The notes under the pieces were generated by a model that was given only the letters and a program-made list of their open reading frames with translations, did not search any database and was not told where the DNA came from. A stretch of 64,000 nucleotides of DNA from NCBI GenBank assembly GCA_029261065.1, contig JAJDCB010000011.1, positions 111,168 to 175,167 of the forward strand, written 5' to 3'. This stretch comes from Candidatus Omnitrophota bacterium. GTDB taxonomy: Bacteria; Omnitrophota; Gorgyraeia; Zapsychrales; Zapsychraceae. Numbering within the stretch: the stretch's first letter is position 1; each line of letters begins with the position of its first letter. Made by a program: the position numbers and the translations under genes. Shown here piece by piece: positions 1 to 51,466 of this stretch.

Positions 1-29
1 ATAAATCCTCAAGTCCTTTTACTAAGAAG

Positions 30-3000
30 TTGCTTCAAGAACTTCCAGCCAATTCTAAAGATAATTACCAGGTAGGTCTGATAAAAGATGTTGCGTTGTC
101 ATCTCCTTTGAAAGTGCGAAAAAAATCTAAGGTGCAAAAGAAGAAAAAAGCATTAACAGCAGACTTTGATGGAGAGTTAATCAGAAAAAAATTGGGAAGT
201 TCGGCTAGAGCACTTTCGTTGCTTAATGGGTCGGATTTAGAAACAAACCTCGTGCAAGTGAATAGTAGAGAGAGAAGAGTCATTCATCGATTGATTAAAA
301 CGGTATCTGAGTTCCATCTTATTACGATTCTTTCACTTTCAAAGCTTGAACAGGCCCCTGGTCGCGACGTTATAGAGCGTTTTTATCAAAGTCCAGACGC
401 AAAATATCGAGTTGCTAAACTTTTACAGCTTGTCGAGGTTGCGAAATATATTCTTTCCAACGTGGAGAGTGTAATTCAAAAGAGAGAAAACATAGAAATA
501 TTGCGAGGAAAATATGTAAAGATTCTTGATGAAAATATATGGTCGCAGGATGAATTACAAGAGATTAGTATTCATCTTGATTATGCAATAACAGATTCCC
601 AAATAGTAAAATTTTCAAAAAAGAAAATAGTTGTTCCCGAAGAAAATAACTTAAAGGCTCTGGAACTCCTTATGGTAGAGATTGAGAAAAGAAGTGTTGG
701 GGATGATGGTATCTCCTTAGAAACCTTTTATAACCAGCTTAGAGCAATAATTGATACACAAGAAGCCAGTTTTAGTAGTCTGGCTCGTTTATCAACTTCA
801 TTTGAATATTCTTTTACCGAGATTGCTGTCAGGCGTTTGTTGAATACTAAAGGAGAAGATTTAAAAAATTACAAAATTACGGCTAACACAGCTAGAGGTT
901 TTATTGCGGTTATTGATTTTTATCAAACATACAACTTATTGGCTCTTGGAGTTCAATTAGTTAATTTTATGGAACTAAGGCCTTCTTTGGAATGGGACGC
1001 TTTAAGCGACTCACAAATAGAAAAAATTATGGTTATGAAGCACATATGGCAAGAACATTACGAGCTATATCAGTATATGATTAATTTAAGTAGAACGATG
1101 AACGGGAAGGCAATTGTTGTACATTTTCAAGAAAAACATCAGATGTTATCAAAAGAATTAGAATATTTAGAAGCACAGGCCATACAATTAGAAGAAGAGG
1201 GTAAAAAACTTGTAGAAGATATCATGGTCACGGTCGAGCCTCTTATTTATGAAGCTCAAAGCTTAATATACAAATTTTTTAGAAGAGACACAATTAATGA
1301 AGAAGCCATAGCTTATTATACTCAAGTGGTTTTTGCAAAAGAGGCCGTTGATCGAATTTTAAAAGAAGAGAAAGTTACAGAAGGGACAACAAAAGATTTC
1401 ATCTGGGATCACATGAGAGATTTCGCTCAAACGCCTCCACAAAGCTCAAGCTCAGTTTTGACATTGGAAACTGCGATGCTAATTTTATCACTTTTGATGC
1501 CTTTCGTTCTGGTAGTAGTATTTGCACATTTAATTTACAAACATGTCGGTGAAGAAAATGATCAAAAAATTCTGCACGCATCTAAAGAAAAAGGGGTTGA
1601 TAGAACGGATGTAAAAGTATTTTTTATGACAATATTTTTATTGGGATTAGTTGTTTACAGGCTGCTGTTTGCTGATGCTGTTGTTATTGAGGATAGCGTC
1701 ATTCAAATAATTAACAAAAGATGGTTTAATGATTTACTTGCTGTGATAACGGTGACAATAATTATTAATATTTTTATAAATATAGTCAGATTAGTGGAGG
1801 GTATAAAAAGTTTTGATGTCCAAGTGATGTTGAGAGCTACTACATATAGTTACTTGATTACCGAATTGTTTATAGAAACATTCCAAAGGGGATCTCCTTT
1901 CATTGATCTTTTTCTTGGATATTTTTATTATAGTGACTACATTGCGTTTGGTATAAGTCTTGCTTTATCGGAGTTGTTCATTTTTAAAGCTTATCCAGAA
2001 GGAAGTCGTAAATTTTTTGAGAAGATTACAATAAATTTAAGAAAAAGTAAAGACACTGAAACAAGCGGATCCAGCCCCTTAAACAAGAAAGATAAGAACG
2101 CGCAAATTGTTATCAGTACTCTAAAGCATCTAAATTTCCCCGAAAGGTATCGTAGGCGAATATCCAAAGTTTTATTAGAAGTTTTTGATAAGAAAGGGGT
2201 TGATTTAGTAAAATTTGAAATAAATCATCAGTCATTAGCAAAGAGAACAATATTTTTTAATAAGTTAAAAGATTTTATTGAATCACTCGCAAGTTATGAA
2301 AATGGAATATTTACATTTAGAGTTCAAGATAATACAAAAATAGGCAAATATCTATTTTTACCATTTGATTTAACGCGTGAGATTGAATATGCCTTTAAAT
2401 ATAAGAATGCAGTAACTGATGAATTATATGCCCTTATGGAGAGTCTTGCCATGAGGGAATGTATCTGCGATCCGTTTATTTTACATGTATTGTTATATTC
2501 TATTGGGTATAGAAACTTTAAATATTATATGATAAATGAGCATATAGTCCTAGCCGTAATCTACAAAGGAAAGTTAATGTTTGTTGATACGGCTGCTGAA
2601 TCAGTTAGTCAGGCATTTTATATAGATGAATACTATCAAAAGTATGGGCAGATATGGAGACTTCGTGATGAAAAGAAGGAAAGGTTTTTTCGCCACGTAC
2701 TTTCAGACTATAGCGCATCTGTTAAAGTTGATCACGTAACTCTTGAGGAGATTCACAGTATTTATGAAATTGTGAACCATAATATTGCACTTCATCACAT
2801 GGAGTCTGATAGATACCAAGAGGCTATGGAGCAATTGAATTTGGGCCTTTCTTATAATCCTAACAATTCCGAAATGCTTTATACCTTAGGTTTAGCATTC
2901 CAAAAAACAGGTCAACTTCAAGAGGCGCTTAAATACTTTAAGCAATCCGCTAAAATTAATCCAATGGATCCTGACGTCTGTATTTGCCTAGGAAATATTT

Positions 3001-6000
3001 ATATTGATCTTCAAAAATATGCTTTGGCCAGTCGTTACTATAATCGTGCTGAGCAGTTAACAAACAAGACATCTAGTTCTTTAAAAGAGAAAAGTAATTC
3101 ACCCATGATTGGTTTTGCAAGAACGAAAAGCGGTCTGCTTTTAACAGAACATGAGATTGATATTGATATATTGGAAAACTACGATGGAAGAATTATTACT
3201 AAAGAGCAGATAGTGTATTTGGAGAGCGCTCTTAAATTAGTTCAATATTATTTAGGAAGAGAACGCGTAGATCTTCTTGTTGCTTTTGAAAAATTAAAGA
3301 AGATGGTGGATCTTGGTTTGATAAGAGCAGCCCCATTTGATCGTATTTATGGAACTATTAAAGAAGACCGGACATATGTTCATGGGCATGCAGGTGTAGA
3401 AAAAGGTATTTACTTAGATAACGTTATTCTTCAAAATCCGCTTGAGTTAATTTTTACTTTGATAAATTTGGTTGGCAGCCTTCACGGACAATCTCATTCT
3501 GAAAATAGTGCTTTAAAGTTTGATTTTATTTTAGATAACGGATTCTATGAGGGATTAGTTGAAAGTGGAATCGTTAATCAAACAAAAAAAGATTCTGCTG
3601 ATCAGCCTTCGATAAAATTATTGCAGAATATCATTGTAAGATTCAATCAAGAGTCTCTTCTTATTCGTCAATCTGTAGAAATTCCTAAATATTTACATAC
3701 GGTTGATCTTCAAGCAATTATAAATCACTACCTGTTTGCAATATTACTGAGAATCGCATCAGGGGAGGTTGTTATTTCAGATCGATTAAGGACTTCCATG
3801 AAGCAGGCAATACCACCATTGGAGAATATTCCAGATCATTTGGTTATTGTTGCGGTTCCAGGCACATTTGATCCACCTCATTTTAATCATATTATTGCTT
3901 TGTTACAGGCTATGCTATTTGCAATGCAAAATGAGAAAGGAAGGCGGGTGACATTTATAGGATTTTTAAAAAATAATTTATTCGATGATGAGGAAATAGG
4001 TTATAAACCGTTTAAATCAAAAGCCTATCACAGAGAAGCCATGGCCAAGCAATTAACGGACATATTTTTTCCTTTAATCAATTTTGCAGGTGCCGATTTA
4101 GGATACCTTCAATCGCATTACTATCAAGAAAGTAGCTTAAGACTGATTGATTTGAATCGTTATCAAACAATGGGTTCTCCTAAACCTGTAAGTTTTTACT
4201 TAGGCTCTGGTGCAGACAATTTTGTTAGAAATCGAAAGGCCTTGCATTACATGCTAGGAGAAAGACATGGTGAATTTGAAAACGTAACATTTAGGATTGT
4301 TATGATTGATGCGCGTTTTAATTCTACATTGGAAGGTGGCTCTGTACATGAGATTCCCTTTGATCAATCCAAATTCAGGCAACTCACACAATATTATAGA
4401 AGACCATATGAAATTCATGCGATCGTAGGACTTCAGGCGACACATTTTAGATCAACAGATCTAAGAGGAGGGTTTGGGGACAGTCATGTGCCGGTATCTA
4501 TACGGAATTATTTTAGAATGAATGCATTATATTCTTTGGACAGAATAAGACAAAGCGCACAAAATACAACTTTAGATGATACGGCATTAATTAGATTTTC
4601 CAGTATATATTCTCCAGGCTATGGCGTTAGTGATCATTTAGAATCTCTTAATTGGGAGTTGTTGCAGGAGTTTGAACTGACAATACATCAATTTTATCTT
4701 TTTCACGGTGATGAAAAAGTGCAAGGCTATACTGAACTGAAAATAGGAAAGGGAACTCTAGTTTATATCCCGTTACCGAATTTAGAAGGTCACCCTGAGG
4801 AATTGTTTAATTTTCAAAAGGCTCTAAGAGATCGTTTACGTTCCCTTTACAGCAGACATCAGGAGGGAGCCTTTAAGCAACCCATCATTTATGTTAATCA
4901 TGATCCGGGTAAACCGGCTTCCCTTGTATTTGATCAAGAGGTAGCTCAGTATCCGGATATTCGTCAGTCGATTGAGTATCATTGGGGCAGAGGCTATGTT
5001 GAACACGACCTTCTTTATCAATTAACAAGCAACGTTCCTTCAGCTAGCGTAACGGTATTAGGATTGGAGGACATATTACCTGAATCGACTGTTGAATTAG
5101 GCAATGGCGTTGATGTTGTCTATTTTAATCCAGCTGATGTAACGAAAGGACGTTTTAGAAAGGAATATGCTGTTTCTGAAAATCAGCTTATTGTTTTTGC
5201 TCCGGCAAGGTTAGTTAGAGAAAAAGGTCATATGGATATACTGCAGGTTGCTTTATTACTGCAAAAACAGGGTCAATTTAAGGATGTTACCTTTGTGTTT
5301 GCGGGCTTAGATGATGATCAGAATTTTTTAACAGAAATGAAGAGGTTTATAAAGTTGCAGAAATTGCAGTATAGATTTTTATTTGTTGGAAATCTTAAGG
5401 GGCATCGGTTATTAGAAGGTTATCGAGATTCGGATATAGGATTATTAGCATCACATAGTGAAGGGACGCCTAGATCAGTTATCGAAATGCAGGCAATGGG
5501 TCTGCCCGTTATTGCAACAAATGTTGGAGGAACGGCAAATGTTATTCTAGATGGGGATTCCGGTTATATAGTAGAAAAGGAAGATGTTCCTGACATCTTC
5601 TTTAGATTAAAGGTGTTGCTCTCAAGTCAGGTTATCCGTACAGAATTTGGTGCTGTAGGCCGGGCAAACACTGTTAACAAATTCTCATTAGAAAAATTAG
5701 CTCAAAGGCATACAACTTTTTACACATCGTTATTATCCTCGGAAGATAATGGAAAGATAGATCCATCGAAGAGACAATCTTCACCGATGGAGTCATTATT
5801 CCTACCGCATGACGGCAATGTCATCGAAGACATCGTTTTTGATCCAACCGATAAAGATGCTGAAATAGTTTATAAAAGTGGAAGACGTGAAGAGATAGTT
5901 TCTAATTACATGCCTGAATTTGACTCAGAAATTGTTAAATTTTATAGCTACAGCAAAAGATCAGCCGCTGTTACCTATATCAATGAAAAAGGATTGGTAT

Positions 6001-18000: not shown

Positions 18001-21000
18001 TTAACTTTTATTTGCATATGGCCAGGAGAGAAGTTGATCATGGTCAATTTGATCAAATGATTAAATCAACACTTCCGATTTTAAATAATTTGATAAGGGA
18101 AGGACCTTATATTAGTAACGGATCATTTCATATGTATAACTTATTAATTCATGCGACTCAAAAGCTTAATGCGGCACAACGCATCGATGCTGCTCATCTG
18201 ATGATGAAAGAAGCAACCAGATTTGCAAAAGAAGTGAGTTTTCCTCCTGATTCAATTAAATCATTGGAACTAGAACGTTTAGTTTTGAAAATTCTCTTAA
18301 AGGTAACAAGATCAAAAAATAAATACCAAGAGATAAATAGGGCTTATTTTGCCTTGGATCAAATTCGATTAGGACAATTAGATCAAGCTATGGAGACGAT
18401 AGGTGAGATAAAATTGATTCATAATAAAATTGTCCTGGAAATCTTCATGGCAAGTTATCTGTTAATGTCAAGAAATGAAAGAAAAGCAGATTTATTAATT
18501 AGAGAGATAAAGAAACGTATGAATGAAAAAATTCGTCGAGTAGGTGTTCGTTTAATCCTTTATACATATCTTTTTGTAAAATTAGTTGAGTCAGGCTATC
18601 TCAATAAAGCTAAACAAATAGCTAATATTATTTTTAGAGAAATTCGTCAATTAAGAAAAATTGACAATGTATGGGTGGCTCGTATCAGCCAAATTATTAA
18701 ACAGGCGTTGTTAGTGACCTTGCCTGAACATGATAGGCCTTTGAGGGAATTAGGTGGATTATATCAGCATATTGAAAGGGGTATGAGTTTAGGGATTAAC
18801 GCTGCTTTTAAATTAATGATTGATATTTCTGGAAAGTTTCCAATCAATTCAGAAAATGAACAGTTATTTAGCAAGGAGGTGCACAATGCATCGAATTGGA
18901 TTCAGCACTATAAAGATGACATTGGTTTTATGTATCTATTCTATCCCGAATTTAAGCAATACGAAACCTTAGCTGAGTTTGACCAAGCTTTTCAAAAACA
19001 ATCTCAGGATCTTATTTTGAATGGATTTCCATTGGAATCTTCTAGAAGAACACAAATCCTTGTCTTTATGGGAATACGGTTTGCTGGAATTAAGACGATA
19101 GAATTAAAAGAGCTCGAGGACCGTTGGGACAAAATTCAACATTTTGAAAATAATAATCCTGGTTCATTTGCACGTGCATTTAATGATCGTGGATATCCCA
19201 TTTTGTTTATAAAATCGCTTCGTAGAAAAGTTAGAGCCGATGAGGTGAAATGGGGTAAGCTCTGGGCTCATTGGCGTCCGATTTATCATATGCAATATCA
19301 TTTGCTTCACGGAAAAACGGATGACGTTGTTATGGATGGCTTCGCAGAAGGAAAGCGTATGCCTATTTTAGATGAGAAGACAAGGGATCGGTTTTTTAGA
19401 AGAAGTTACGCTTACGTGTTGATTGAAGAGCAGTTACATAAGGATTCCTCATTAGCTGATCGTATTGGAATAATGAATACAAGAAAGTTAGATCTGTTTC
19501 TTTTTCATCATCCAGAATTGGAGAATATTCAGGATATTATATTTGAAAGAAGATCAGATGAAGAGTTTCAAAAAAGGTTTAGAAAGGCCATGTTTAAAGT
19601 GACATTGTGGATGAGTAATTTTTTTACAAATGATAAGAGCGGCCAATTTGCAAGATTGGCTCGGCTGATATTGTTTTCTTATGAATTTAATAAAGAATGG
19701 CATATGAAATTTAACGATTCTGAGAATCCGGATGATCAATTTGCTTCCTTTTATGCCTTTTTCAATGACGCCATCAATCATTTACCCAACCAACTCAATT
19801 TCTCAATCAGCCAATTTAAGAAATTAGAGGAGAGCATAAATGAATTTAGAAATCCAATATTTGAGGAAATGAATGCCGCTCATGTTGATGAGTATGAAGA
19901 TATTGATGGTGGTTTCTGGTTAGTCCCTGTTGGATTTTTAGGTTTAGCTCGAGGAAAGGCGGGCCTTGGTGATTGTTCCTTTAATTGTGGATCCGCTGGC
20001 GATCCTTTTAGCCGATTTATGAGTCAGGATGCCATAAACTATTTTGTTTATGAGGGTAATAGAGATCTAAATAGAAAAGTTACTGAAAGGTTAAAGACTA
20101 ATGAGCATGGTTTAACGGCATTTGATTTTGCTTCGGGTCAAAATCTGAAAGGTTATATTGGTTTGCATGAAGCTCAAAGTTTAAATGGAAGAAGAAAAGT
20201 GATGGCCATGGACACCATTGGAACCCCACAGATTATTGTCGAGCAACAAATTAGAGAATTATTAAAACAGGTTGAACAAGTTGCCCATGCCAAGGGTTTT
20301 GAATCAACGGCCTTACCGCACAACTTAGGACCTTCATTTACACATCAAAATAAAGAAGTCATTCAAAAAATGCCCGAATTCCGCAAGAAACGGATGATCA
20401 AATTAAGATCGTTGCACGATAGTAAGTGGCAGAAGTTTACAGAAATGTTCGGGAAAGATAAATATCATTCCATCGAAGACGGACGCTTTAGACTAGTTAA
20501 ATTGGAGGAAGAAGTATCAAGTCTAATGACACTCAGAGGTTCTTCCCCGCTTAACCGCATTGATTTCATCATCGAATTTCTTCTAGCCGGCGAACTAGAT
20601 GTAGCCCTAAAAGCTTTTCACAGAAAACCACCACAATCATCATATGATTTTGATTTTAAGACAATCATGATGGCGCTTAATATAAAATTGCCTGAAAGGG
20701 CAGGCCATGCGATTCTTGGAGCACTTGATCATCAAAGACAAGCGCATGTTATAACCAGACAATTTGTAGAACGCATTAATACAACGAGTAGAGTTGTATC
20801 AGAAGATTTACTCGTAGAAGAGAGGGTTTTACTGGAGCATACAATAGAGGTGGCCGCTTGGATATTTGACGAAATTGAACAAATTGACCCTGTCTATCAA
20901 TTGCCTCGAGATAAAGTGTTTTCTTCCTTTGGCATTTCGGGTCTTCATATCGAGAGAGACATCCATGATTTAGAACTAGATCGTAGAGCCTTAGAATGGC

Positions 21001-23405
21001 ATTTAGTAACCATCGAGAATGGGCGATTTGGGCCAGCCGTTAAAGAGTTTAATCAGTTTTTATTAAGCTTAGGCATTCGTTCCGTAGAAGATTTGAATGA
21101 AAATTTTGAAATAGTTATTTTCCCATCCCTGCATGAACGGTTATCAGAAGAAGAAATAATAATCTGGCGGAATCAAATGAGTTTAAGACAATACCGATCT
21201 GAAATTCTTGCAGCCATGTACTTGAAATCTGTCGTCATTTTAAAAAACGTCAAGTCTGTAATAAATAAGGAAACAGAACGAACCGTTACTCCTTTTGATA
21301 ACAACATTCAAAGAACACAGCTCGAGATTGCCAAACATGCCGCTTTGCAAATAGTTAGAATGTTTAAACTAGGTGAGTTTAATTATGGTCGAGGAGATGG
21401 AGTACAAAAGTTAGTTCAAAGCATAGATCGCGCTATTGCCTTTCAGCGTTCTTTTGTATCTTCTGCATTAAAGAAAAGCGTTTCACGTTTAGAAATTAGC
21501 AATATCAAAGCGCACATTTCAGGAATGCTTGGTTTCTTGCTGTTCCCAGTGCTTGAAGTTCCAGATGAGATTGTTGCGCTTAAGAAAATCTCTTCCCATC
21601 ATAATATTCTCAGTATTGGTGGCGCGGTCACACCTTACTATTTTCTCGAGCATGCGAACACCGTGGATGTCGTTGATCATGCGCCAGAACAAATATGGTT
21701 CCTTCGCATACTACAAACAGCCATTAAAAAGCAATCGACGGAAGAATTAATGGAAGATCTTAGAGGGATTATCCGTAGGCAAGGATTGTCCGAGGTACAA
21801 GAGCGGATAATACTTAAGAGCTTTGAACAAGCTTATGGATTTATTGTAAACAAAGAGCGAAGACAGAACCTAGAAGGAAAAGTTGATCGCATCAAATTGG
21901 TCGAATCAAATATTATTTCTGTCCCACGAGACACCAAATACGACATAGTTTATTATTCAACGTTACCGTTTGTCTATGAACAAGCAGAAGATGCGCAGTC
22001 ATTAGAGAGTCTCATGAAGAGAATTAATGTTGATCTAGAGAACGGAATAACTGTTATTTATGCCACGTTTTATATGCGTAATCCACTAAGGTCACTGGAA
22101 AGTTATATTCCAAATGCTCTTAATAAATATGAAATCAAAGTTGTTCCATCCAAGATATATCCTGTGACATCTTATGTTGTGCTTTCTATTAAAAATTCTA
22201 TTTTTGAAAAGGGGCGCTCAAAATCATCTTTTGATACTACTACCACTTTAAATGTTGCAGGATCTTTAAGTGTTGAAAAATATGCATCAGGTCAAACAAC
22301 CCTTCGACGGAGTAAGAAGTTGGCACGAGAAGTTAGTGTTCGTCAACTCAAAAATTCTTCCCTTCCACAATCATCTTCATCCCTTAGACTTGAAGAAATT
22401 TTAAAGCTTGTTGAAGAAGGTGAAGTTGATATGGCTGTTTGGAAATTTGTAAATAAAGAGTTTCAAGGTCAACATTATGCGGATTATGTTAAGGTGCGCG
22501 ATGTATTATTAAGGCGTCTTGAGACGAGAGTTTTTCTACTTAGAAATAAAATTTTAAATCTATCGGTAAGGAGTGGCGATTATATATTGGGGTTTATATC
22601 TGGTGTAATAGTGAGTCGGGAAATAGTAGATCGTAGAGTTTATAGGATAGCTAAGAGTGATCATAATCTAGCTTATAAAAGACTTGAAGATGAATTCAGT
22701 CAAAGGGATGCTGAGAAGGTAGCTATCCATGCACAAATTATTGCTGATCCTGTGAATATGTTTAGAGAGTCTTTAGATAGTGTTTTTGTTAAAATGTCAA
22801 CTGGCGTATATGAGATAGATAATTCGACAAGTAGAAATAGTTTTAAGTTAGATAAATTTGAACTTATTCAAGAGAACATTAACGAACTTCTACACCGAAA
22901 TCTACATTTAGAAGTATCCTTGACACAAGCAGAGTTAAATAAAATATTGCTACGTGTACAAGCAACAATATATATTAACGCACTACGCGGTGTATTTGAA
23001 GATCGTACTTATGACAGACTAAATTTTATGACATTAAGGGAAAGTCCAATAAAAAATTTAAAACGGACTCAATATTATTTCAATATTCTTTTAAATAGTG
23101 GTGTAGTTACCTCACAGTTGAAAGATCAAATAGAAAAAGACAAATGGCAAGTTTCAGAAGCCATTCGATACAATGAATCATCTTCGCCTATGCGAACGTT
23201 GGGTACGAAATTAAAAGAATGGATAAAAGTGCGTTATGAAAAAAATAGGGGGCTTTTCTCGAAGGAATTTATTATTCATTGGATAGATGAGATATTTATT
23301 GAATTAAATGTTTTTAGATTGCAATTACTAGATTGGATGTATCAATTATTACATATTCGTGAATGGTTTTATCGATTAAGACGATTAATGTTTGGTTGGG
23401 GATGA
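30..23405 (+). CDS. Giant multidomain, polytopic membrane-anchored protein (7,791 aa) with TPR, HxGH nucleotidyltransferase-like, GT-B glycosyltransferase, HEAT-like, acyltransferase-like, SAM-methyltransferase and histidine-phosphatase modules
   Basis: A single open frame of 7,792 codons in an AT-rich genome, where stops are frequent by chance. It is preceded by an in-frame TAA at 24-26 and ends with TGA at 23403-23405. The only candidate starts are TTG at 30 and GTG at 114, so the start is uncertain. Recognisable motifs are listed as separate 'other' features. All antisense and alternate-frame ORFs inside it are short. Confidence 0.85.
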   Translation: MLQELPANSKDNYQVGLIKDVALSSPLKVRKKSKVQKKKKALTADFDGELIRKKLGSSARALSLLNGSDLETNLVQVNSRERRVIHRLIKTVSEFHLITILSLSKLEQAPGRDVIERFYQSPDAKYRVAKLLQLVEVAKYILSNVESVIQKRENIEILRGKYVKILDENIWSQDELQEISIHLDYAITDSQIVKFSKKKIVVPEENNLKALELLMVEIEKRSVGDDGISLETFYNQLRAIIDTQEASFSSLARLSTSFEYSFTEIAVRRLLNTKGEDLKNYKITANTARGFIAVIDFYQTYNLLALGVQLVNFMELRPSLEWDALSDSQIEKIMVMKHIWQEHYELYQYMINLSRTMNGKAIVVHFQEKHQMLSKELEYLEAQAIQLEEEGKKLVEDIMVTVEPLIYEAQSLIYKFFRRDTINEEAIAYYTQVVFAKEAVDRILKEEKVTEGTTKDFIWDHMRDFAQTPPQSSSSVLTLETAMLILSLLMPFVLVVVFAHLIYKHVGEENDQKILHASKEKGVDRTDVKVFFMTIFLLGLVVYRLLFADAVVIEDSVIQIINKRWFNDLLAVITVTIIINIFINIVRLVEGIKSFDVQVMLRATTYSYLITELFIETFQRGSPFIDLFLGYFYYSDYIAFGISLALSELFIFKAYPEGSRKFFEKITINLRKSKDTETSGSSPLNKKDKNAQIVISTLKHLNFPERYRRRISKVLLEVFDKKGVDLVKFEINHQSLAKRTIFFNKLKDFIESLASYENGIFTFRVQDNTKIGKYLFLPFDLTREIEYAFKYKNAVTDELYALMESLAMRECICDPFILHVLLYSIGYRNFKYYMINEHIVLAVIYKGKLMFVDTAAESVSQAFYIDEYYQKYGQIWRLRDEKKERFFRHVLSDYSASVKVDHVTLEEIHSIYEIVNHNIALHHMESDRYQEAMEQLNLGLSYNPNNSEMLYTLGLAFQKTGQLQEALKYFKQSAKINPMDPDVCICLGNIYIDLQKYALASRYYNRAEQLTNKTSSSLKEKSNSPMIGFARTKSGLLLTEHEIDIDILENYDGRIITKEQIVYLESALKLVQYYLGRERVDLLVAFEKLKKMVDLGLIRAAPFDRIYGTIKEDRTYVHGHAGVEKGIYLDNVILQNPLELIFTLINLVGSLHGQSHSENSALKFDFILDNGFYEGLVESGIVNQTKKDSADQPSIKLLQNIIVRFNQESLLIRQSVEIPKYLHTVDLQAIINHYLFAILLRIASGEVVISDRLRTSMKQAIPPLENIPDHLVIVAVPGTFDPPHFNHIIALLQAMLFAMQNEKGRRVTFIGFLKNNLFDDEEIGYKPFKSKAYHREAMAKQLTDIFFPLINFAGADLGYLQSHYYQESSLRLIDLNRYQTMGSPKPVSFYLGSGADNFVRNRKALHYMLGERHGEFENVTFRIVMIDARFNSTLEGGSVHEIPFDQSKFRQLTQYYRRPYEIHAIVGLQATHFRSTDLRGGFGDSHVPVSIRNYFRMNALYSLDRIRQSAQNTTLDDTALIRFSSIYSPGYGVSDHLESLNWELLQEFELTIHQFYLFHGDEKVQGYTELKIGKGTLVYIPLPNLEGHPEELFNFQKALRDRLRSLYSRHQEGAFKQPIIYVNHDPGKPASLVFDQEVAQYPDIRQSIEYHWGRGYVEHDLLYQLTSNVPSASVTVLGLEDILPESTVELGNGVDVVYFNPADVTKGRFRKEYAVSENQLIVFAPARLVREKGHMDILQVALLLQKQGQFKDVTFVFAGLDDDQNFLTEMKRFIKLQKLQYRFLFVGNLKGHRLLEGYRDSDIGLLASHSEGTPRSVIEMQAMGLPVIATNVGGTANVILDGDSGYIVEKEDVPDIFFRLKVLLSSQVIRTEFGAVGRANTVNKFSLEKLAQRHTTFYTSLLSSEDNGKIDPSKRQSSPMESLFLPHDGNVIEDIVFDPTDKDAEIVYKSGRREEIVSNYMPEFDSEIVKFYSYSKRSAAVTYINEKGLVSLAVKLKDAPPFEMFTPFDFVRGVTDVRFNLTESGIAAIFDFNYDPVNPPVRIKIVNMIDSKLIEDMFTGAGIKRQLSERLGKEVHPNIEVRFFESSYEGFVIVTYNTLEERKRKVTVVQLTSSPLSLEDQGKTGTYNKSSLIMPQNVEAGVATLAPSSATFTLTERLKLMLSTRAPPTGFSTFVLLTILSALMFLTSPAALQAQESFNPIHPNIHLVHDNKNKRIVPWSTPIELHDENNKWVMNYFSGMPLDLLLNFEQRQIKAQKARTKQAFPEPIQVRRTKSLTIHFKYIEEGTINIILHDAHDATRDIRLPPAHLQTSDKASVTLFVSKIPWKNMKEVGAISIEWDKSEEAGVTVDTLEGLKVRPIIVIPSVIIVEFLDFFEAKLNQPWLQSKYQKQEKDYPHSSSPVGTETISLISLFIDPAFVVGAVVILSAWFWKTRLRHRVFNTYVDDFIIGILHFVGGLVFVIVSGSFLDFPSEQPDFEKIGPFGFLIATIVLLISGLFTGIIGFTLLKGFVGYTLTFNPKRILTYKDNWNNMGFRYFRYNTDLYRDYLETLVPEKFELAINNGINELRNQLFIENEKGEGSDEANWTQHEQWIKNYASLAASEYIDPIQREFIRNEVINLFRWAYELTEIANIKTGIIQELKTIGGDEAVQMIDDIISSKDDRYDMEELVGVLGKITGPTEGISTLEKAIKGSGKRTAKSAVQLLGKKEGSQVNQILFNIIKERRQGLVYDAVVGLGKNMREDVLSELIDILRNTPERVGEEAAHALGSIGDVKHIPDLMTVHILNRGPGSYSNVHPFSEAFKKIWNRNKDKTNAVNQDYMGLAVILAFMHSGDLLHTPLFEARNKGIITGYLFNHAEHRQVTNRGFVPLTLEPGILTASYGFVFERKEFSIEKMANKLGIAPTLILEVNESGEKDSLVWGDGLLRGKVSNEQIYLYLPSVQLIHNAQKGIFDGFNDVKLLGIAPNLSKVFYVMPYGEVFSCCMLGNESINRIQLTAKAHMKRFKQTLKKNIKDYLNGLTPIQREKYFTIVPVSGEGQEPRLGRVEKKDHEPVYLEKGVLYQLNNKLIEKLQAEFSKTEDKVLQALDFIFWETIYENPLRGLLLDLEDFNGRYGVSGHMEAGKERLIQVSAKFDLKGLNIVVENEEILLEEEEKSTTAINGFIDPSQVIYRGDERTIPVRNLYDVLSVVAIYHDSTTGMVIYEKVLKGKAIITVNDQIIKIDGRESLSQLVPEGSRVIIEEKEKVSSKEPQSPGISDRTPRISAEGERNSSPLENHLMRKVNRLMVYSRKAIRAKSYTLKEHNALHRSAYDQFNDLIRNHRQFLLNPPEKHKSRVIDMLISMTVAFPSMHYDSQVDVTDNIYKTQHYLKELLLMDENMLRQRALLRRIAIELNKYKTSIDSVYPKFRMGVSAVVDPFDYIHDLWELQNMIGSVEISLSTHPLSSKKNVLLLSVGQEYNAPQKFTHFTLFSGHTHHFEFKFVLSDKDTAIASDYLAKGLTSYVLRFTRDREIHLAIYNQITNKWRIVYEQNEVSKNLYDFGILSSINNRLTSDKFPTSRDTFHSSPINTAVMFMGRPVMKLYTGHARVLYESGLPETVELFKKVAVALDTLDPQQEENGLERVFNVTKENDPRAFYVLFSILQVAEYFKLRHLIKQNQWAIDINTFIGYSQGLYAAAFSAGSLSVEDFVKLLINSYNYDTKNPSNEEERVGIIIEGEDVGANNNLVFRLQHVFPLFETIQYLSPDMINGRILSRQLGQLKDYLFTRYGKDVQVSLDMVANTITHSTGLIDKRRLFEQSIKDDGIQFQKPQIPIVSMSGEQLITEPRHIVDELGGIFDTKIFIADAMSQLTQRNLDFVFNLSLEKDKFIKRLFRLHDLRIPLGTFQDYLSESGAFGRSGSPFKANISNLKHPSLRQNSSPHKTRKNRDERNHSSQIITSEVQQSSTVDLYTQLDETIEKTNNLYLKKYTIGIGKDVYSIATDPLGGYLRVGPVVIINREHLTQSISNLYQQHISMTVTDLNIKWRSFVIPIIAAMVHHRDAIKDSVVFEFGSGRGLLIHEALKLGAKRVIGIDNNIEELERSVQLFRGLKYPVKLILGLDNLKNVNMQENLLIHDNIERWLTLNAKERQQIMGTDVPLYIGNIGEFYVVHDMLIDSFVNQSRLTFDLSILGGYDGSIGFGTAVTIDRLRKFGWKVNLVPSQTGELGFYAIVFGSDSKMKSSNPLHSKRSRLSNSSSMQKNNPEKLVEAGFVGIGIAKDKQTAQEFREARAHIVIHGDYRNKDKLLLAIGHSSSSSAIMSSEYRRTPTSSPFIAIHEKRKGIEENKHITKFLQLLTFGTTLLISGVAHAQTGDSANLENNEYGAIEFPGLPIIMEHTKRVNIYTQEGFIIPGFTPTEEIAFMSVLLISLILSAKIIFTYIKNKTKEKKKVYSAKDILKFIFSVTILAIAFDHLAKFLAVTIFLETLGDITLHYVLRFQSVTIVIQQTFEFALGVISITLLANKYKMFTVKSIQVAMISLALIFAGIPQRFSARGLPVIDFIPLKFTLGFSPADFMVVVGGIIFPIVVFWKLYMWGLNKMFGHKIENRVFTILLLINAGFIGALDFYAPSTLEQYESILSWISLPVLYGSTKIISHFIRKVFDQPLGSSSPLTKIDLKRIDRLKEHIEIDYKTGRFRLIQSVKMMFHFIMVRHGLTFANIKKINQGLKYFGPLGNLSPPGIKTIHTHLISNLYNYYERYALEKRLVMVSSEISRAIQTRELIAEQLRPLYRERIETSESHLANEMNFGTLEGKAFSEITPYETRMYERIWVDRNYLLPYPQGYNFLRLFDQAYELLNTINTSSHQTMTTLVSHGVMIQVARALLGDKEIVDQDGWIDLGQGMLPNAQLIFIEKDTGRIEMPSISLTSSPLTNAFNPTKPTVLMWVRKGGSTLFQTQGNRTKGIRARISNLYSSSSLIDGGRIPILIADPYKSLIIEWANKPDQSQDFYLGEIQLREEGSTDKTSKKRFVYVRETKRRGAHGDSESNFKLMFSSKEIKVDNDEFIEEFGQFVRLYKKDDGWQLERFYPLGSKSDMVNPYGGTGVDTLIWEYFTTAIKSQYHGFYNSGTENYRAVRSYLINSARGNGLLQSIKIGHSRRQNLEKVKMDGRFFGEENFRALYIQNMSRKIKLFSLIALGENEYQAHTIDESFLGTEFLIDGDRVVVTFPSGDVIKDGIKVGHIQEVTRTIYVNSKPVSSPLVKIFYDSLSNSTRQFSGKQSEETQRAIDGQFTRVAGQNEMDIFLRDYDPILMEVRRSLQNLMGQMFMQTSELLSNGFYYINSNTPSPRDDFNMKSRQNIVFRRFGVGDLGLLGLHRSAMVNNIDIKGTGDDGIYPFLLNDPLKGFNSRFLEFGNLRWLARGEALVALRLQEVALEALGEPIMISTPFDIISTQYIPFNGSIISLEDYFINYIEQHPQARNYFAQFNAGKSEKVTNTKSIQEDIKYFLSTYGVAQLRSWLPTDMRSAITDIATSKGLEVLFEELFRLHNEDFVKPLEAGDPNQYRSLIKKYNMSQIISILNKSAIHLGRAIGVILGIGANVEQSFAKRNLTGFFIGKDYDDGYVPSRFQEQFIYKRVAEPGLKWHVSQGVLTLQDLGEFLLGRDAENVTRAAEKILKETVYETYIQVQETIIEDPNQIVFQPAFIKGLRQWRDQKGFALLKAKTSSALSLIQSISYRELTPFISDSTSSPLVKFDARSATSSSPLKSKVLKIFPKEKETVLYQFLNKLKSIIPENLIDSVDRASTYEAWDVHPEYGYPRRKQVELKILLDNYKYDAHTLNEADEEKAVTDILKLAAWIVIGHKSVLGPNINEDNRIFLESVDEVMAHIKNKNNIFKVVEYFKLNRYRYLPTILRARVAFHLYKSGDTVNAKRLFISAMRQAQKHTLEINDAFRLYVYIAHQHLLLGRIATGRRILRRIMSDGKIEKSFELTVALNYLDSGYGFHALKIVQPMGAEDQFNFYLHMARREVDHGQFDQMIKSTLPILNNLIREGPYISNGSFHMYNLLIHATQKLNAAQRIDAAHLMMKEATRFAKEVSFPPDSIKSLELERLVLKILLKVTRSKNKYQEINRAYFALDQIRLGQLDQAMETIGEIKLIHNKIVLEIFMASYLLMSRNERKADLLIREIKKRMNEKIRRVGVRLILYTYLFVKLVESGYLNKAKQIANIIFREIRQLRKIDNVWVARISQIIKQALLVTLPEHDRPLRELGGLYQHIERGMSLGINAAFKLMIDISGKFPINSENEQLFSKEVHNASNWIQHYKDDIGFMYLFYPEFKQYETLAEFDQAFQKQSQDLILNGFPLESSRRTQILVFMGIRFAGIKTIELKELEDRWDKIQHFENNNPGSFARAFNDRGYPILFIKSLRRKVRADEVKWGKLWAHWRPIYHMQYHLLHGKTDDVVMDGFAEGKRMPILDEKTRDRFFRRSYAYVLIEEQLHKDSSLADRIGIMNTRKLDLFLFHHPELENIQDIIFERRSDEEFQKRFRKAMFKVTLWMSNFFTNDKSGQFARLARLILFSYEFNKEWHMKFNDSENPDDQFASFYAFFNDAINHLPNQLNFSISQFKKLEESINEFRNPIFEEMNAAHVDEYEDIDGGFWLVPVGFLGLARGKAGLGDCSFNCGSAGDPFSRFMSQDAINYFVYEGNRDLNRKVTERLKTNEHGLTAFDFASGQNLKGYIGLHEAQSLNGRRKVMAMDTIGTPQIIVEQQIRELLKQVEQVAHAKGFESTALPHNLGPSFTHQNKEVIQKMPEFRKKRMIKLRSLHDSKWQKFTEMFGKDKYHSIEDGRFRLVKLEEEVSSLMTLRGSSPLNRIDFIIEFLLAGELDVALKAFHRKPPQSSYDFDFKTIMMALNIKLPERAGHAILGALDHQRQAHVITRQFVERINTTSRVVSEDLLVEERVLLEHTIEVAAWIFDEIEQIDPVYQLPRDKVFSSFGISGLHIERDIHDLELDRRALEWHLVTIENGRFGPAVKEFNQFLLSLGIRSVEDLNENFEIVIFPSLHERLSEEEIIIWRNQMSLRQYRSEILAAMYLKSVVILKNVKSVINKETERTVTPFDNNIQRTQLEIAKHAALQIVRMFKLGEFNYGRGDGVQKLVQSIDRAIAFQRSFVSSALKKSVSRLEISNIKAHISGMLGFLLFPVLEVPDEIVALKKISSHHNILSIGGAVTPYYFLEHANTVDVVDHAPEQIWFLRILQTAIKKQSTEELMEDLRGIIRRQGLSEVQERIILKSFEQAYGFIVNKERRQNLEGKVDRIKLVESNIISVPRDTKYDIVYYSTLPFVYEQAEDAQSLESLMKRINVDLENGITVIYATFYMRNPLRSLESYIPNALNKYEIKVVPSKIYPVTSYVVLSIKNSIFEKGRSKSSFDTTTTLNVAGSLSVEKYASGQTTLRRSKKLAREVSVRQLKNSSLPQSSSSLRLEEILKLVEEGEVDMAVWKFVNKEFQGQHYADYVKVRDVLLRRLETRVFLLRNKILNLSVRSGDYILGFISGVIVSREIVDRRVYRIAKSDHNLAYKRLEDEFSQRDAEKVAIHAQIIADPVNMFRESLDSVFVKMSTGVYEIDNSTSRNSFKLDKFELIQENINELLHRNLHLEVSLTQAELNKILLRVQATIYINALRGVFEDRTYDRLNFMTLRESPIKNLKRTQYYFNILLNSGVVTSQLKDQIEKDKWQVSEAIRYNESSSPMRTLGTKLKEWIKVRYEKNRGLFSKEFIIHWIDEIFIELNVFRLQLLDWMYQLLHIREWFYRLRRLMFGWG
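1450..2000 (+). other. Cluster of about 4 predicted transmembrane helices within the giant protein (aa ~475-655)
   Basis: Hydrophobic stretches LILSLLMPFVLVVVFAHLIY, VFFMTIFLLGLVVYRLLF, LLAVITVTIIINIFINIV and GYFYYSDYIAFGISLALSELFIF. Further TM clusters lie at nt ~7240-7560 and ~13000-13850. Confidence 0.5.
2812..3060 (+). other. TPR repeat region of the giant protein
   Basis: YQEAMEQLNLGLSYNPNNSEMLYTLGLAFQKTGQLQEALKYFKQSAKINPMDPDVCICLGNIYIDLQKYALASRYYNRAEQL fits the 34-residue TPR pattern (W/LG/Y ... A..F..A..P). Confidence 0.6.
3838..4300 (+). other. Cytidylyl/adenylyl-transferase-like (HxGH nucleotidyltransferase) module of the giant protein
   Basis: VIVAVPGTFDPPHFNHIIAL matches the (G)GxFDxxHxGH signature of the cytidylyltransferase superfamily (NadD, CoaD and TagD-like). 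The domain extent is estimated. Confidence 0.45.
5100..5640 (+). other. GT-B fold glycosyltransferase (GT1/GT4, RfaG-like) C-terminal domain of the giant protein
   Basis: LIVFAPARLVREKGHMDILQVA...FVGNLKG...LASHSEGTPRSVIEMQAMGLPVIATNVGGTANVILDGDSGYIV is the classic GT4 C-terminal signature (E-x7-E region, EGF/TP...EAMA.G.PVIAT). Confidence 0.75.
7950..8370 (+). other. HEAT / PBS-lyase-like repeats in the giant protein
   Basis: Repeated ~30-aa units such as ELKTIGGDEAVQMIDDII, ...AVQLLGKKEGSQVNQILFNII... and ERVGEEAAHALGSIGDVKHIPDL. Confidence 0.45.
10900..11560 (+). other. Acyltransferase (FabD / PKS-AT)-like module with a GxSxG nucleophile motif in the giant protein
   Basis: FIGYSQGLYAAAFSAGSLSVEDFVKLL aligns closely with the FabD active-site block GHSLGEYSALVAAGALSFEDALRLV. 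A downstream THSTG sits where the FabD catalytic His lies. Confidence 0.4.
12090..12450 (+). other. Class I SAM-dependent methyltransferase module in the giant protein
   Basis: Motif I VVFEFGSGRGLL (hh[DE]xGxGxG) is followed by motif II VIGIDNN with an acidic end to beta-2. Confidence 0.6.
14070..14640 (+). other. Histidine phosphatase (phosphoglycerate-mutase superfamily) module in the giant protein
   Basis: FHFIMVRHGLTFAN carries the RHG catalytic motif, and a second conserved His lies in TLVSHGVMIQ about 165 aa downstream. Confidence 0.55.
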
Positions 23406-23430: not shown

Positions 23431-24003
23431 TTACATCCCATACTGTTTCCATAGGTCTTCGAATTCTTTGTGAACATCTTTGCCGTAATTGGCTGTTAGT
23501 TCTTTAAGTAGGGATAAGTTAATTTTATCTGCGGAAATTTTTATAATTCCAATCGCATCGTTGATGTCTTTAGAGCTTCCAGCAAAAATTTTCATGGCGA
23601 TGAGATCTTCCATACTAATGATTTTAATCGAAGAGTTCTGGAAGTTTGCTTGGTTTGTTCGTGTTAAGGCATCTTCTTTCATGCCTTTAATACCGAATAA
23701 AAGATCAACACGATTTTTAAACGTATCTTCAACATTGATGACCGCTGCAATGGGATCATCGAAGTCTCCTGTTCTATGATTTACCTGAAGACCTGCTTCA
23801 GTAAGAGCTTTGACAGTGTTTTGTAATCCGTGCTTGGAATCATCGAAATAAATAATGGCGTCAGTATCCATACTAGCTCTAACGACACCGTAAAAGGATG
23901 CTGCAAATGCTCCAATAATGGCGTAGGAGACGTTTATTTTGGATAAGATTTCGATGACATCAAGAAGTAAGAGTGGTGATTGTCCAGGGGTGGTTGTTCT
24001 CAT
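23431..24003 (-). CDS. Hypothetical protein with a nucleotidyltransferase (Pol-beta superfamily) fold
   Basis: 190 aa. GAFAASFYGVVRASMDTDAI fits the G[SA]-x9-D-x-D minimal nucleotidyltransferase signature. Its ATG overlaps the upstream small ORF by 4 nt (ATGA coupling). Confidence 0.5.
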   Translation of the reverse strand: MRTTTPGQSPLLLLDVIEILSKINVSYAIIGAFAASFYGVVRASMDTDAIIYFDDSKHGLQNTVKALTEAGLQVNHRTGDFDDPIAAVINVEDTFKNRVDLLFGIKGMKEDALTRTNQANFQNSSIKIISMEDLIAMKIFAGSSKDINDAIGIIKISADKINLSLLKELTANYGKDVHKEFEDLWKQYGM

Positions 24004-29402: not shown

Positions 29403-30494
29403 ATGATGAAAATTTTAAATATCACTGTTTATATATTTGTTGCAACATTTTTGTTTTCAAGTACTTACGATGTATCAGCTTTAGAGGAAAATCGTAGGAC
29501 CCCAGCGGATTTTCTTGTGGAGGTGGGCAAAACTGACCTTCAAAAGGGGAATATCCAGCAGGCCATTCATGAGTTTAGTAAGGCCCTTATGATGGACCCT
29601 CATCATAAGGAAGCCAAGCAGCTTTTAGTCCAATTTGGCATTGAAGATGGGCTGTATACTAAGCAAAAGACGCATTTAAGCCGCATTTCCGATATGGGTG
29701 ATCATATCCGCTCTTACCGCGCCAAACTAGAAGATTTAGAGCGTCAAAAGGCTGACCTTAAAAATCAATTTGCACGATTACAGGTTGAGCATTTTTCAAT
29801 TATCAGAGAAAATAAAAATAAAGACCTAGAGATTTCAAAGCTCAAAACCACAATCACCGCGATCCAAAAGACAGCCAATCATAATAAGGGTATTTATGAA
29901 GGCAAGGTCGGTCAAATGGATCAGGCAAACGAATATCATCGTGAAAGTCTGCTTGATATGCAGGAGGCGATGAACCAAGAAAAGGAAGCTGCATTAGCAC
30001 CGCTTGCTAATCATAGAAAATTGAAGCAAAATTATGAAGCATATCACGATAAATTCGATAAGAGTATTGAGTATTCTGCGTATTTAGAAGAGGAGTTATT
30101 AAGCCTTTCCGATAAATATCATTCCTTAAACAGTCAAATTTCTGATCAGTATGTTCATCAAGATAAACTGATTCATGTATTAGAAGATTATCTTAAGCTT
30201 CGTGAAGCAAGTTTAGACGATGCTTTGGATGAGGCGTTATATAAGCACGTTGATTTGACTCAGGCGGACAGTATGGTTTTAGCCAAATTAAATGAGCTTA
30301 TTGACTTACATGATGATGTGGATCAAAAACGAAATCGTATTGATGATCTTCATGATGATCTGATGATTAGTAAAGATATGATCTTGGATCGCAATAAGGA
30401 GATTAATGATTTACAAGAAGAAATACAAGGGGCGGATCATTATATTCAAATCCTCTTGGATGAGCAGCGCGAGAAGAGAGAAATGTTAGAATAA
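29403..30494 (+). CDS. Secreted or membrane-anchored coiled-coil protein (hypothetical)
   Basis: N-terminal signal/anchor MMKILNITVYIFVATFLFSSTYDVSALEE, a TPR-like segment, then a long heptad-rich region. Followed by an intrinsic terminator. Confidence 0.55.
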   Translation: MMKILNITVYIFVATFLFSSTYDVSALEENRRTPADFLVEVGKTDLQKGNIQQAIHEFSKALMMDPHHKEAKQLLVQFGIEDGLYTKQKTHLSRISDMGDHIRSYRAKLEDLERQKADLKNQFARLQVEHFSIIRENKNKDLEISKLKTTITAIQKTANHNKGIYEGKVGQMDQANEYHRESLLDMQEAMNQEKEAALAPLANHRKLKQNYEAYHDKFDKSIEYSAYLEEELLSLSDKYHSLNSQISDQYVHQDKLIHVLEDYLKLREASLDDALDEALYKHVDLTQADSMVLAKLNELIDLHDDVDQKRNRIDDLHDDLMISKDMILDRNKEINDLQEEIQGADHYIQILLDEQREKREMLE

Positions 30495-46148: not shown

Positions 46149-46252
46149 AAATAAAGTCTTTTTTTTTGCAGCATATATCCGAATGATGGATCAATATATC
46201 ATCGCCGCTAGTTCTTGTCAACTTTATCAGGGGTGGTGGTGATATGCTAATC

Positions 46253-48653: not shown

Positions 48654-48662
48654 AATTGATTT

Positions 48663-49802: not shown

Positions 49803-49829
49803 TAAAAGGGAAGTAATTTCCAAGTTACA

Positions 49830-51454: not shown

Positions 51455-51466
51455 CCGGTTTGTTAT

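Follow-up and report, generated by a model that had tools for sequence, protein, structure and literature searches.

The window analysed here is a stretch of 64,000 nucleotides from contig JAJDCB010000011.1 (assembly GCA_029261065.1). Its first 23.4 kb are occupied by a single giant open reading frame (ORF) which, together with a short peptide centred on Ser-Ser-Pro-Leu (SSPL) that recurs along its product, is the subject of this study. The ORF listing places the frame at 30..23405 on the forward strand, on which all features of the giant given below also lie, and assigns it 7,791 amino acids (aa); it is the sole ORF of at least 150 aa within the first 23.4 kb. The frame itself (3..23405) is stop-free for 7,800 codons and ends at a stop codon at 23403-23405, with a TTG at 30 as the first start candidate inside the window. 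Ahead of that TTG the frame encodes KSSSPFTKK and runs without a stop as far left as window base 3, which makes 7,791 aa a minimum length and leaves the TTG as no more than a candidate start. The ORF very probably extends leftward past the window edge; a copy of the recurrent peptide (SSPF, 9..20) lies upstream of the TTG and likewise indicates that the protein continues to the left.

The reality of the frame was judged against chance and against the other frames. The giant's frame contains a single stop in its 7,800 codons; the five remaining frames contain 407-766 each, with no open run longer than 140 codons. At the local GC-content of 36%, stops make up 7.7% of random codons, and the probability of such a run arising by chance is approximately 1e-270. 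The GC-content by codon position (0.459/0.324/0.287) is that of coding sequence, the periodicity is uniform, and base composition is even across the ORF. An earlier note on this DNA, made from the sequence alone, had held that the frame could not be due to chance, and this is upheld; its further claim of a 7,791-aa protein stands as regards one real giant frame, but as a size the figure is only a minimum, the frame being open at the window edge. The gene turned up in no other public assembly, and an exact 50-mer from the start of the window is absent from two public contig collections (genome and metagenome). Word-indexed protein searches with aa 5736-6837, 3567-4218 and 1255-1530 returned zero matches, the giant itself included, from which it follows that the giant is absent from that collection. 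An independent assembly exists for the downstream part of the window only, at ~30.9-45 kb (a 14-kb Logan contig from run SRR15505515).

To assign modules, Pfam was scanned over overlapping 1,000-aa tiles and over individual segments, and NCBIfam and PDB were also searched. Four modules, all of them named in the earlier note, give significant matches to these collections. TPR repeats lie at 2784..3029 (aa ~919-1000; Pfam TPR_2, E 1.9e-18). The C-terminal half of a GT4 glycosyltransferase of the GT-B type lies at 5079..5735 (aa ~1684-1902) and matches Glycos_transf_1 (PF00534, E 2.2e-25; 89.6 bits against a cut-off of 26.4) together with the NCBIfam models EpsE (9e-26) and stp2 (4e-25). With the NCBIfam GT4 models the alignment starts at about position 160 and runs to the end; the secure alignment thus covers the C-terminal half, and the N-terminal Rossmann half has no confident match. 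HEAT or alpha-Rep-like repeats occupy 7947..8369 (aa ~2640-2780; HEAT_2, E 4e-7; alphaRep in PDB, E 2e-10). A branch 1 histidine phosphatase lies at 14082..14615 (aa 4685-4862), with VRHG at aa 4687-4690 and matches to His_Phos_1 (PF00300, E 5e-13; 49.5 bits against a cut-off of 21.7) and NCBIfam CobC (2e-8).

Kyte-Doolittle hydropathy shows about 15 hydrophobic helices in three clusters, in agreement with the three or more transmembrane clusters of the earlier note. The first (1470..1979, aa ~481-650) has 4-5 helices, the second (7242..7544, aa ~2405-2505) 3-4 and the third (13005..13844, aa ~4326-4605) about seven. A further signal-peptide-like or transmembrane segment, ending ...ALQA/QE, can be read from the sequence at 6543..6617 (aa 2172-2196). 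Strings reminiscent of signal peptidase II (LspA) occur in the third cluster (FDHLAK; VIDFI...FSPAD) and are probably a coincidence; the segment that contains them (12957-13961, aa 4310-4644) was considered as an LspA-like intramembrane protease that might cleave the giant, a reading rejected because neither Pfam nor NCBIfam supported it, even when lenient E-values were allowed.

Two further modules became apparent through their families. When aa 3567-4644 were searched exhaustively with HMMER against 1.84 billion representative proteins, only 39 proteins reached E<=1e-3. These fall into two disjoint sets: 11 match aa 3567-3915 only, 28 match aa 3920-4218 only, and none spans the junction between the two. 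The first block (10728..11774) is a FabD/MCAT-like acyltransferase, with a Ser nucleophile in GYSQG and a His in THS. As a single sequence it is sub-threshold (Acyl_transf_1, E 0.16; MdcH, E 0.0018); a profile built from 12 sequences of the family matches FabD crystal structures over the full length at E 9.5e-18, and in the family alignment Ser103 (of GxSxG) and His217 are invariant. The FabD-like block proposed earlier is therefore supported. Stand-alone homologues of this module are 360-432 aa long (P0036, 360 aa; P0037, 389 aa).

The second block (11787..12683) is a class I S-adenosylmethionine (SAM)-dependent methyltransferase. A phmmer search of PDB matches it to PRMT1 (E 4.8e-5), with FEFGSGRG aligned to motif I; the family profile reaches PRMT and PH1948 structures at 3e-9. 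Pfam PrmA (PF06325) is matched by 16 of the 21 aligned family sequences (20 plus the window module; best E 3.6e-11), the window module alone falling under the threshold (E 0.023). An AlphaFold model built from the family alignment shows the two-domain PrmA fold with a predicted local distance difference test score (pLDDT) of 90.1 and a predicted template-modelling score (pTM) of 0.90, and its top Foldseek match is PrmA (3cjq_D; E 3.7e-8, template-modelling score 0.56). Identity to PrmA is about 15%, and one relative is named 'L11 methyltransferase, partial' by NCBI. The SAM-methyltransferase motifs of the earlier note are thus confirmed and sharpened to a PrmA-like, that is, protein methyltransferase, fold. 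PrmA itself, the ribosomal protein L11 methyltransferase, shares the two-domain fold; the window module differs in sitting within mosaic giants. A metagenome scan with the PrmA-like alignment recovered ordinary methyltransferases of ~300 aa rather than giant ORFs. A single-sequence AlphaFold run on aa 3567-4305 gave a pLDDT of 33 and is uninformative on disorder of the linker.

In other mosaic proteins the FabD-like and methyltransferase-like modules stand at other positions and beside other neighbours (HATPase_c, HD, metallophosphatase, kinase). The disjoint sets of homologues and the changing neighbours imply that the module set is shuffled and is not a conserved pathway.

A seventh proposed module is a putative nucleotidyltransferase of the NadD/cytidylyltransferase type (3810..4529). 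The motif named in the earlier note, GTFDPPHFNH, is present at aa 1278-1287 and is joined by a second, RSTDLR, some 190 aa further on; the spacing from PHFNH to RSTDLR, as read from the sequence, is NadD-like. That much of the claim holds, but the family matches amount to three concordant sub-threshold ones (Pfam CTP_transf_like, E 0.072; TIGR00125, E 0.026; NadD TIGR00482, E 0.061), and neither homologues (word-indexed search, aa 1255-1530) nor a PDB match were found.

The remainder of the chain is dark. From 14748 to 23402 (2,885 aa) there is no detectable family: for aa 4907-7791, about 37% of the chain, neither Pfam nor NCBIfam gives a match, nor does PDB at E<=0.5, and aa 5736-6837 have no homologue in the protein collection. 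Ketosynthase (KS), acyl or peptidyl carrier protein (ACP/PCP), ketoreductase, dehydratase and enoylreductase (KR/DH/ER), condensation (C) and adenylation (A) domains were detected in none of the Pfam tiles, which bears out the earlier view that the protein is not a polyketide synthase (PKS) or nonribosomal peptide synthetase (NRPS). Pfam scans of the window part of the giant were equally negative for dockerin, SecA_DEAD, C39 and S8 peptidase, carbohydrate-binding and adhesion domains. TPR, GT4, HEAT, His_Phos_1, FabD-like and PrmA-like modules occur once each, and the giant has no internal repeats. The picture of a real, giant, membrane-anchored chain of unrelated enzyme modules is accordingly retained, with six of the seven named modules holding. 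One feature of composition sets the giant apart: Cys makes up 0.10% of its residues (8 of 7,791 aa) and 1.38% of those of the 31 other ORFs of the window, a 13-fold depletion. The eight Cys form four close pairs (aa 811/813, 984/986, 2982/2983 and 6649/6653). Nearly all of the mosaic homologues (P0001-P0039) are similarly poor, with 0-0.5% Cys.

The recurrent peptide is the feature that the earlier note missed. Counted from aa 1, the sequence S-[S/N]-P-[L/M/F/V/I/H] occurs 17 times in the giant, against 0.77 expected; the SSPF at the first bases of the window is an eighteenth copy. With the residue ahead of the core included, the peptide takes the form [S/T/G/N]-S-S-P-[L/M/V/I/F]. The tripeptide SSP is found 16 times (1.27 expected; P 7e-13), with a maximum of 6 in 2,000 shuffles, and SSPL 10 times (0.135 expected; P 5e-16); no other tri- or tetrapeptide of the giant is as strongly over-represented. 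Elsewhere in the window SSP is rare, with one copy in the 11,722 aa of the 31 other ORFs.

The copies lie between modules. Beginning at the left, SSPL is found at 99..110 (aa 24) and 2070..2081 (aa 681), SSPM at 5778..5789 (aa 1917), and SSPL at 6366..6377 (aa 2113). SSPV at 7224..7235 (aa 2399) precedes a transmembrane helix that starts 6 residues on, and is followed by SSPL at 9837..9848 (aa 3270). SSPI at 10716..10727 (aa 3563) stands 3 residues ahead of the first strand of the FabD-like module; SSPH (11775..11786, aa 3916) and SNPL (12684..12695, aa 4219) come next. Seventeen residues beyond SSPF (12945..12956, aa 4306) is a Sec-signal-like stretch, KFLQLLTFGTTLLISGVAHA/QTG, which bears an AHA/Q site. 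SSPL recurs at 13962..13973 (aa 4645) and 14736..14747 (aa 4903), and five further copies cut the dark C-terminus (aa 5231, 5721, 5735, 6838 and 7718; nt 15720, 17190, 17232, 20541 and 23181). The sequence SSSS[L/V/M] at aa 472, 1014, 4231, 4948 and 7448 may represent degenerate copies.

Recognised domains and transmembrane clusters together account for 1,766 aa, and none of the 17 sites falls within them (P 0.013). Between successive sites lie stretches of 14-1,236 aa, in most cases 190-880 aa, lengths that are usual for whole proteins, and each homology block from the exhaustive search stays within one such stretch. The flanks are rich in Lys and Arg and are hydrophilic: mean hydropathy is -0.76, compared to -0.23 +/- 0.15 for random positions, a value that none of 5,000 random sets reached.

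At the nucleotide level the copies are diverse. Serine is encoded by TCA, TCT, TCC, TCG and AGC, proline by all four CCN codons and leucine by TTG, TTA, CTA, CTC and CTT, and the flanking DNA is unrelated from copy to copy. The varied codons and unrelated flanks mean that conservation is at the level of the peptide and not of the DNA, and indicate that the motif is kept by selection on its amino acids. A DNA-level signal (a recombination site, an anti-Shine-Dalgarno sequence or an internal start) was considered and is excluded by the same two observations; the idea that it belongs to a repeated domain was rejected on finding no internal repeats in the giant or in its relatives with SSP-type motifs.

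Similar peptides are found in related proteins. The closest MutS to that encoded downstream of the giant, among 185,579 species genomes, belongs to a metagenome-assembled genome (MAG) labelled 'uncultured Planctomycetales' (L002; 60% identity), followed by Candidatus Omnitrophota MAG246 (59%); all others are at or below 45%. Taken with the source names of the module homologues given below, this makes Omnitrophota the most likely phylum for the window, an assignment of moderate confidence. L002 carries a giant ORF of its own (14387-22519, minus strand), convergent with and beside mutL, of at least 2,710 aa and running off the contig. It is syntenic with the window giant, and sequence similarity between the two is undetectable despite that synteny. 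Its product contains a protein kinase domain and an adenylate-kinase-like module (Pfam AAA_33/ADK, aa 1736-1885). SSPV occurs in it four times, against 0.14 expected: the copies at 1726 and 1934 bracket the adenylate-kinase-like module, whose P-loop begins 10 residues past the motif, and the protein kinase domain sits between two further copies. At the C-terminus a unit of ~139 aa is present three times in tandem at 88-100% identity, which may be real or an assembly artefact.

The module homologues extend the comparison. Those with source names come from Omnitrophota MAGs, save P0012, which is labelled Deltaproteobacteria. In P0001, P0003, P0004, P0008, P0012 and P0023, [S/A]-S-P-[L/V/I/M] occurs 4-7 times against ~0.3 expected and supplies their top 4-mers, and none of the six has internal repeats. 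In P0001, P0003, P0004, P0012 and P0023 the peptide at the end of the PrmA-like module is AASPV, GSSPM, SSSPI, ASSPI or GSSPV. Elsewhere the same boundary carries a different peptide. In P0014 it is GARL[A/V] (GARLV at the module boundary), and GARL occurs 14 times in that protein against 0.22 expected (P 5e-21); in P0010 it is D-x-A-M-[T/Q] (DRAMT), in P0021 DEAM (DEAMT), in P0026 RGPP and in P0028 DAGP, the last with recurrent GDSH/DAGP. These five (P0010, P0014, P0021, P0026 and P0028) are taxonomically unplaced proteins. On this comparison of sequences the junction motif is different from protein to protein. Stand-alone FabD-like proteins (P0036, P0037 and P0018) start no more than some 15-20 residues from the position of the junction in the giant. 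In large control ORFs from unrelated genomes, a strong excess of any 4-mer was seen only where tandem repeats were present.

Several of the proteins with SSP-type motifs (P0001, P0003, P0004, P0008, P0023, P0025) share two unannotated modules: a conserved N-terminal one of ~350 aa that bears a signal peptide (...FRPLHLRYL.YD...WVNLRPDSPDN...TLTRPWIVPGEIIIRE...), and a C-terminal one that starts with SSSP[IL]xxKGGIDLRALP and closes with DKVL.C.ADILRLEEE. Both are absent from the window part of the giant.

The giant's surroundings are those of an ordinary bacterial chromosome. Downstream lie mutL and mutS (convergent), yifB, accA, rlmN, two genes for PMT_2/TMEM260-like GT-C glycosyltransferases and a GT2 gene, and beyond these tRNA-Leu, tRNA-Ala, iscS, birA, a biotin operon, mnmA and pgi. 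The two PMT_2/TMEM260-like genes, one of them fused to TPR repeats, and the small GT2 gene occupy 31078-32802 (+), 42236-42940 (+) and 43571-45049 (-). They may constitute a protein O-glycosylation set within 22 kb of the giant; any tie to the Ser-Ser-Pro sites is speculative. The biotin locus (47700-53506, +) comprises birA, a bioF-like aminotransferase, a BioH-like alpha/beta hydrolase, a BioC-like methyltransferase and a BioD-BioA fusion (AAA_26 plus Aminotran_3, 679 aa). Two ORFs are without NCBIfam match: one of 190 aa at 23431-24003 (-), convergent with the giant and ending 25 bp from its stop, which is not in the public gene-position index, and one of 363 aa at 29403-30494 (+), upstream of mutS. 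The sole Rfam or ARAGORN matches in the window are tRNA-Leu(CAA) at 45069-45155 (-) and tRNA-Ala(GGC) at 46075-46149 (-), ~1 kb apart.

What kind of gene is this? We consider it very likely that the window contains the C-terminal part, at least 7,800 codons, of a mosaic giant of the Omnitrophota type, a known class, furnished with a junction motif. The frame holds some 17-22 protein-sized modules of 70-1,240 aa, among them three transmembrane anchors, scaffolds, enzymes and about 2,900 dark aa. What the analysis shows is a mosaic built like beads on a string: the beads are autonomous modules from a shuffled pool rather than the steps of one pathway, and the strings bear a peptide kept by selection. 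The module boundaries are marked by [S/T/G/N]-S-S-P-[L/M/V/I/F] in a hydrophilic, basic context. We further propose that the motif may be a recognition site for a lineage-specific factor acting in trans, most plausibly an endopeptidase, which would cut the chain into individual proteins of the cytoplasm, the membrane and perhaps the periplasm: a cellular polyprotein. The reading that combines the mosaic giant, its junction motif and processing is the one we favour and think probable. Processing at the junction peptides, taken by itself, is a tentative proposal drawn from sequence comparison.

The proposal leans on one pattern above all: the motif is fixed within a protein and yet different between proteins at the same module boundary, and it is this that favours a recognition factor. 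Cleavage sites of viral polyproteins behave in the same manner, the motif being fixed within a lineage, differing between lineages and co-evolving with the protease. Features that resemble N-termini also follow several junctions, namely the Sec-signal-like segment after aa 4306, the transmembrane helix after aa 2399 and the P-loop in the L002 giant. More tentative still, indeed doubtful, is the general proposition that giant ORFs of the Omnitrophota type are cellular polyproteins, operon-equivalents in one chain that would be cut at lineage-specific junction peptides by dedicated endopeptidases; the peptide would be x-S-S-P-[L/M/V] in the giant described here and GARLA, DxAM[T/S] or RGPP in others.

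Several observations weigh against these proposals. The N-terminus of the giant lies beyond the window and was not recovered from public contigs. The taxonomy is that of MutS identity and MAG labels, with one nearest relative labelled Planctomycetales and P0012 labelled Deltaproteobacteria. An uncleaved chain that crosses the membrane several times (in-to-out, a periplasmic loop, out-to-in) would account for the signal-like segments equally well. Pfam detects no peptidase family in the window part of the giant or in four relatives, and NCBIfam scans of the giant are likewise negative. P0002, P0005, P0007 and P0009 have no recurrent motif; the pattern is common, not universal. Lastly, the comparison set is small, 39 proteins and L002, and a clear junction motif is found in only about 12.

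The main rival takes the giant as one uncleaved polypeptide, in which the SSP-L peptides are short, exposed, proline-kinked hinges that stop adjacent modules from disturbing one another as they fold during translation, and the chain a membrane-tethered scaffold that brings many enzymes together. The hydrophilic flanks of the motif and its position outside domains suit a hinge; the transmembrane clusters give a self-consistent multi-pass topology for which cleavage need not be invoked; a protease domain was found neither in the window part nor in the four relatives; and published accounts treat giants of this kind as architectures anchored in the inner membrane. Passive linkers, however, usually vary in sequence and length, whereas the giant retains a core of four residues at 17 sites despite the differing codons. 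Moreover, the same boundary elsewhere carries other, equally fixed motifs (GARLA, DxAM, RGPP), which points to sequence-specific recognition. We regard the hinge as a serious contender, if on balance an unlikely one.

A second rival sees in the motif a footprint of evolution at the level of DNA, such as the scar of cassette insertion or translated DNA that was formerly intergenic, with no present function. The shuffling of modules among mosaic proteins and the correspondence of junctions to the ends of proteins that stand alone elsewhere would both be expected of such scars. Against this, the nucleotides are not conserved (five Ser, four Pro and five Leu codons, with unrelated flanks), and a neutral scar would have lost its amino acids while synonymous differences built up. 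Nor are the junctions fused gene starts, the fourth codon being rarely a start codon. We think a scar improbable.

Ser-Ser-Pro might instead be a site of modification, either O-glycosylation by the nearby PMT_2/TMEM260-like GT-C enzymes or phosphorylation by kinases of the proline-directed or the Hanks type, that regulates or protects the linkers. Ser/Thr-Pro is a common context for O-mannosylation and for kinases, the region 8-22 kb downstream holds two PMT_2/TMEM260-like genes and a GT2 gene, and the L002 giant has a protein kinase domain. But the GARLA, DEAM, RGPP and DAGP junctions do not contain the Ser-Ser-Pro core, which makes Ser-Pro modification unlikely as the general function, and many of the sites adjoin modules that depend on cofactors of the cytoplasm (SAM, nucleoside diphosphate sugars, acyl-CoA), whereas a GT-C enzyme acts on the outer face of the membrane. 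This explanation seems to us decidedly improbable.

The model of the earlier note was an integrated assembly line of the envelope, one machine whose successive modules would activate a single substrate with a nucleotide, attach sugar, acyl and methyl groups to it and remove phosphate. The protein is indeed membrane-anchored, and the putative nucleotidyltransferase adjoins the GT4 within one inter-motif segment (aa 685-1916), such that those two could be coupled. The combination of modules is not conserved, however: the FabD-like and methyltransferase-like homologues are disjoint sets with shuffled neighbours. In addition, the methyltransferase is PrmA-like, of the protein-modifying rather than the sugar, lipid or small-molecule type; the Pfam tiles of the giant reveal no carrier (ACP/PCP), flippase, polymerase or export module; and 37% of the chain has no assignable function. 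We regard the single-substrate machine as unsupported and very improbable.

That the long frame is an artefact of assembly or sequencing (chimeric joins, collapsed frameshifts) is extremely improbable: the gene is unmatched in other assemblies, only the downstream 14 kb have been assembled independently and giant genes are often fragmented in MAG assemblies, but errors break frames rather than make them, a chance frame has the probability given above, and uniform periodicity, even composition, domains in one frame from aa 919 to 4862 and a motif along the whole length all speak for a real gene.

Returning to the mosaic giant with its candidate processing sites, we asked how it relates to what has been described. 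Omnitrophota are reported to encode, as a common feature, giant ORFs of more than 20 kb that have many transmembrane helices but few domains that can be annotated (PMC10066038); the giant described here, with 23.4 kb inside the window, exceeds the 20 kb used as a size criterion (Seymour 2023). Nielsen & Lui 2026, who cite 5,761 proteins of at least 10 thousand aa (kaa) from their own data and NCBI combined, catalogue 916 Omnitrophota proteins of that size, of which 94% have transmembrane helices or signal peptides and 80% are sequence singletons (bioRxiv 10.64898/2026.06.07.730766); with its window part of at least 7.8 kaa the present protein falls below their threshold of 10 kaa unless the missing N-terminus exceeds 2.2 kaa. 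Among their classes is a 'multi-enzyme metabolic cluster', characterised by group 1 glycosyltransferase, methyltransferase and HEAT content and by membrane anchoring (bioRxiv 10.64898/2026.06.07.730766). Like the window ORF, members of this class combine many enzyme families with none dominant, include group 1 glycosyltransferase (PF00534), methyltransferase and HEAT modules, and are anchored by transmembrane helices; the window ORF is also unique in sequence as a whole protein, a property that it shares with 80% of the catalogue. The window giant fits this class, and the phenomenon itself is thus already published; the earlier note, which recognised no described protein of this architecture, is not borne out on novelty, giant multi-enzyme ORFs rich in transmembrane helices having been published for Omnitrophota.

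The junction peptide, by contrast, appears to be unreported. Cleavage of Omnitrophota giants into separate products, with which the processing proposed here would agree, was suggested by West-Roberts et al. 2023, with cut sites not known, and the lack of known cleavage points prevented structural analysis segment by segment (bioRxiv 10.1101/2023.11.21.568195). The text of Nielsen & Lui 2026 (bioRxiv 10.64898/2026.06.07.730766) reports no junction or cleavage motif. A paper on limonene enrichment that discusses Velamenicoccus archaeovorus (PMC12583861) contains nothing on the processing of giant proteins. Searches of the literature on bacterial polyproteins and for the motif strings turned up no junction motif, a description elsewhere being possible.

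Comparison with other large proteins helps to delimit the case. The archaeovorin or Dockerin-type giants (39,678 aa in Velamenicoccus archaeovorus) are likewise giant, rich in transmembrane helices and largely unannotatable, and cleavage has been proposed for them; the window giant differs in being of an enzymatic, cytoplasmic type rather than adhesive, and in that a candidate cut site is visible. Type I PKS, NRPS and fatty acid synthases (FAS) have in common with it a multi-kb ORF and a module of the FabD/acyltransferase fold, whereas the window giant has no KS, ACP/PCP, KR/DH/ER, C or A domain and its module order is not conserved in relatives. Viral polyproteins (those of picorna-, poty-, flavi- and nidoviruses) place protein-sized units and membrane anchors in one frame with short recurrent separators, a likeness of organisation only. 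Unlike them, the window giant is part of a cellular chromosome, beside mutL and mutS, and no protease module was found in its window part.

The central question about these giants is whether they work as one chain or are cleaved, and the motif turns the matter of cut sites into a testable prediction. It offers a way to split giants into units that can be folded and annotated; should the polyprotein reading be true, it would amount to a simple in silico rule for dissecting them into mature proteins. It also provides a handle for finding the recognition factor, by asking which proteases co-vary with which type of motif. If confirmed, processing of this kind would be an unusual way for a cell to express its genes; if it is refuted, the domain grammar that the motif defines, for proteins about which little is understood, would stand nonetheless.

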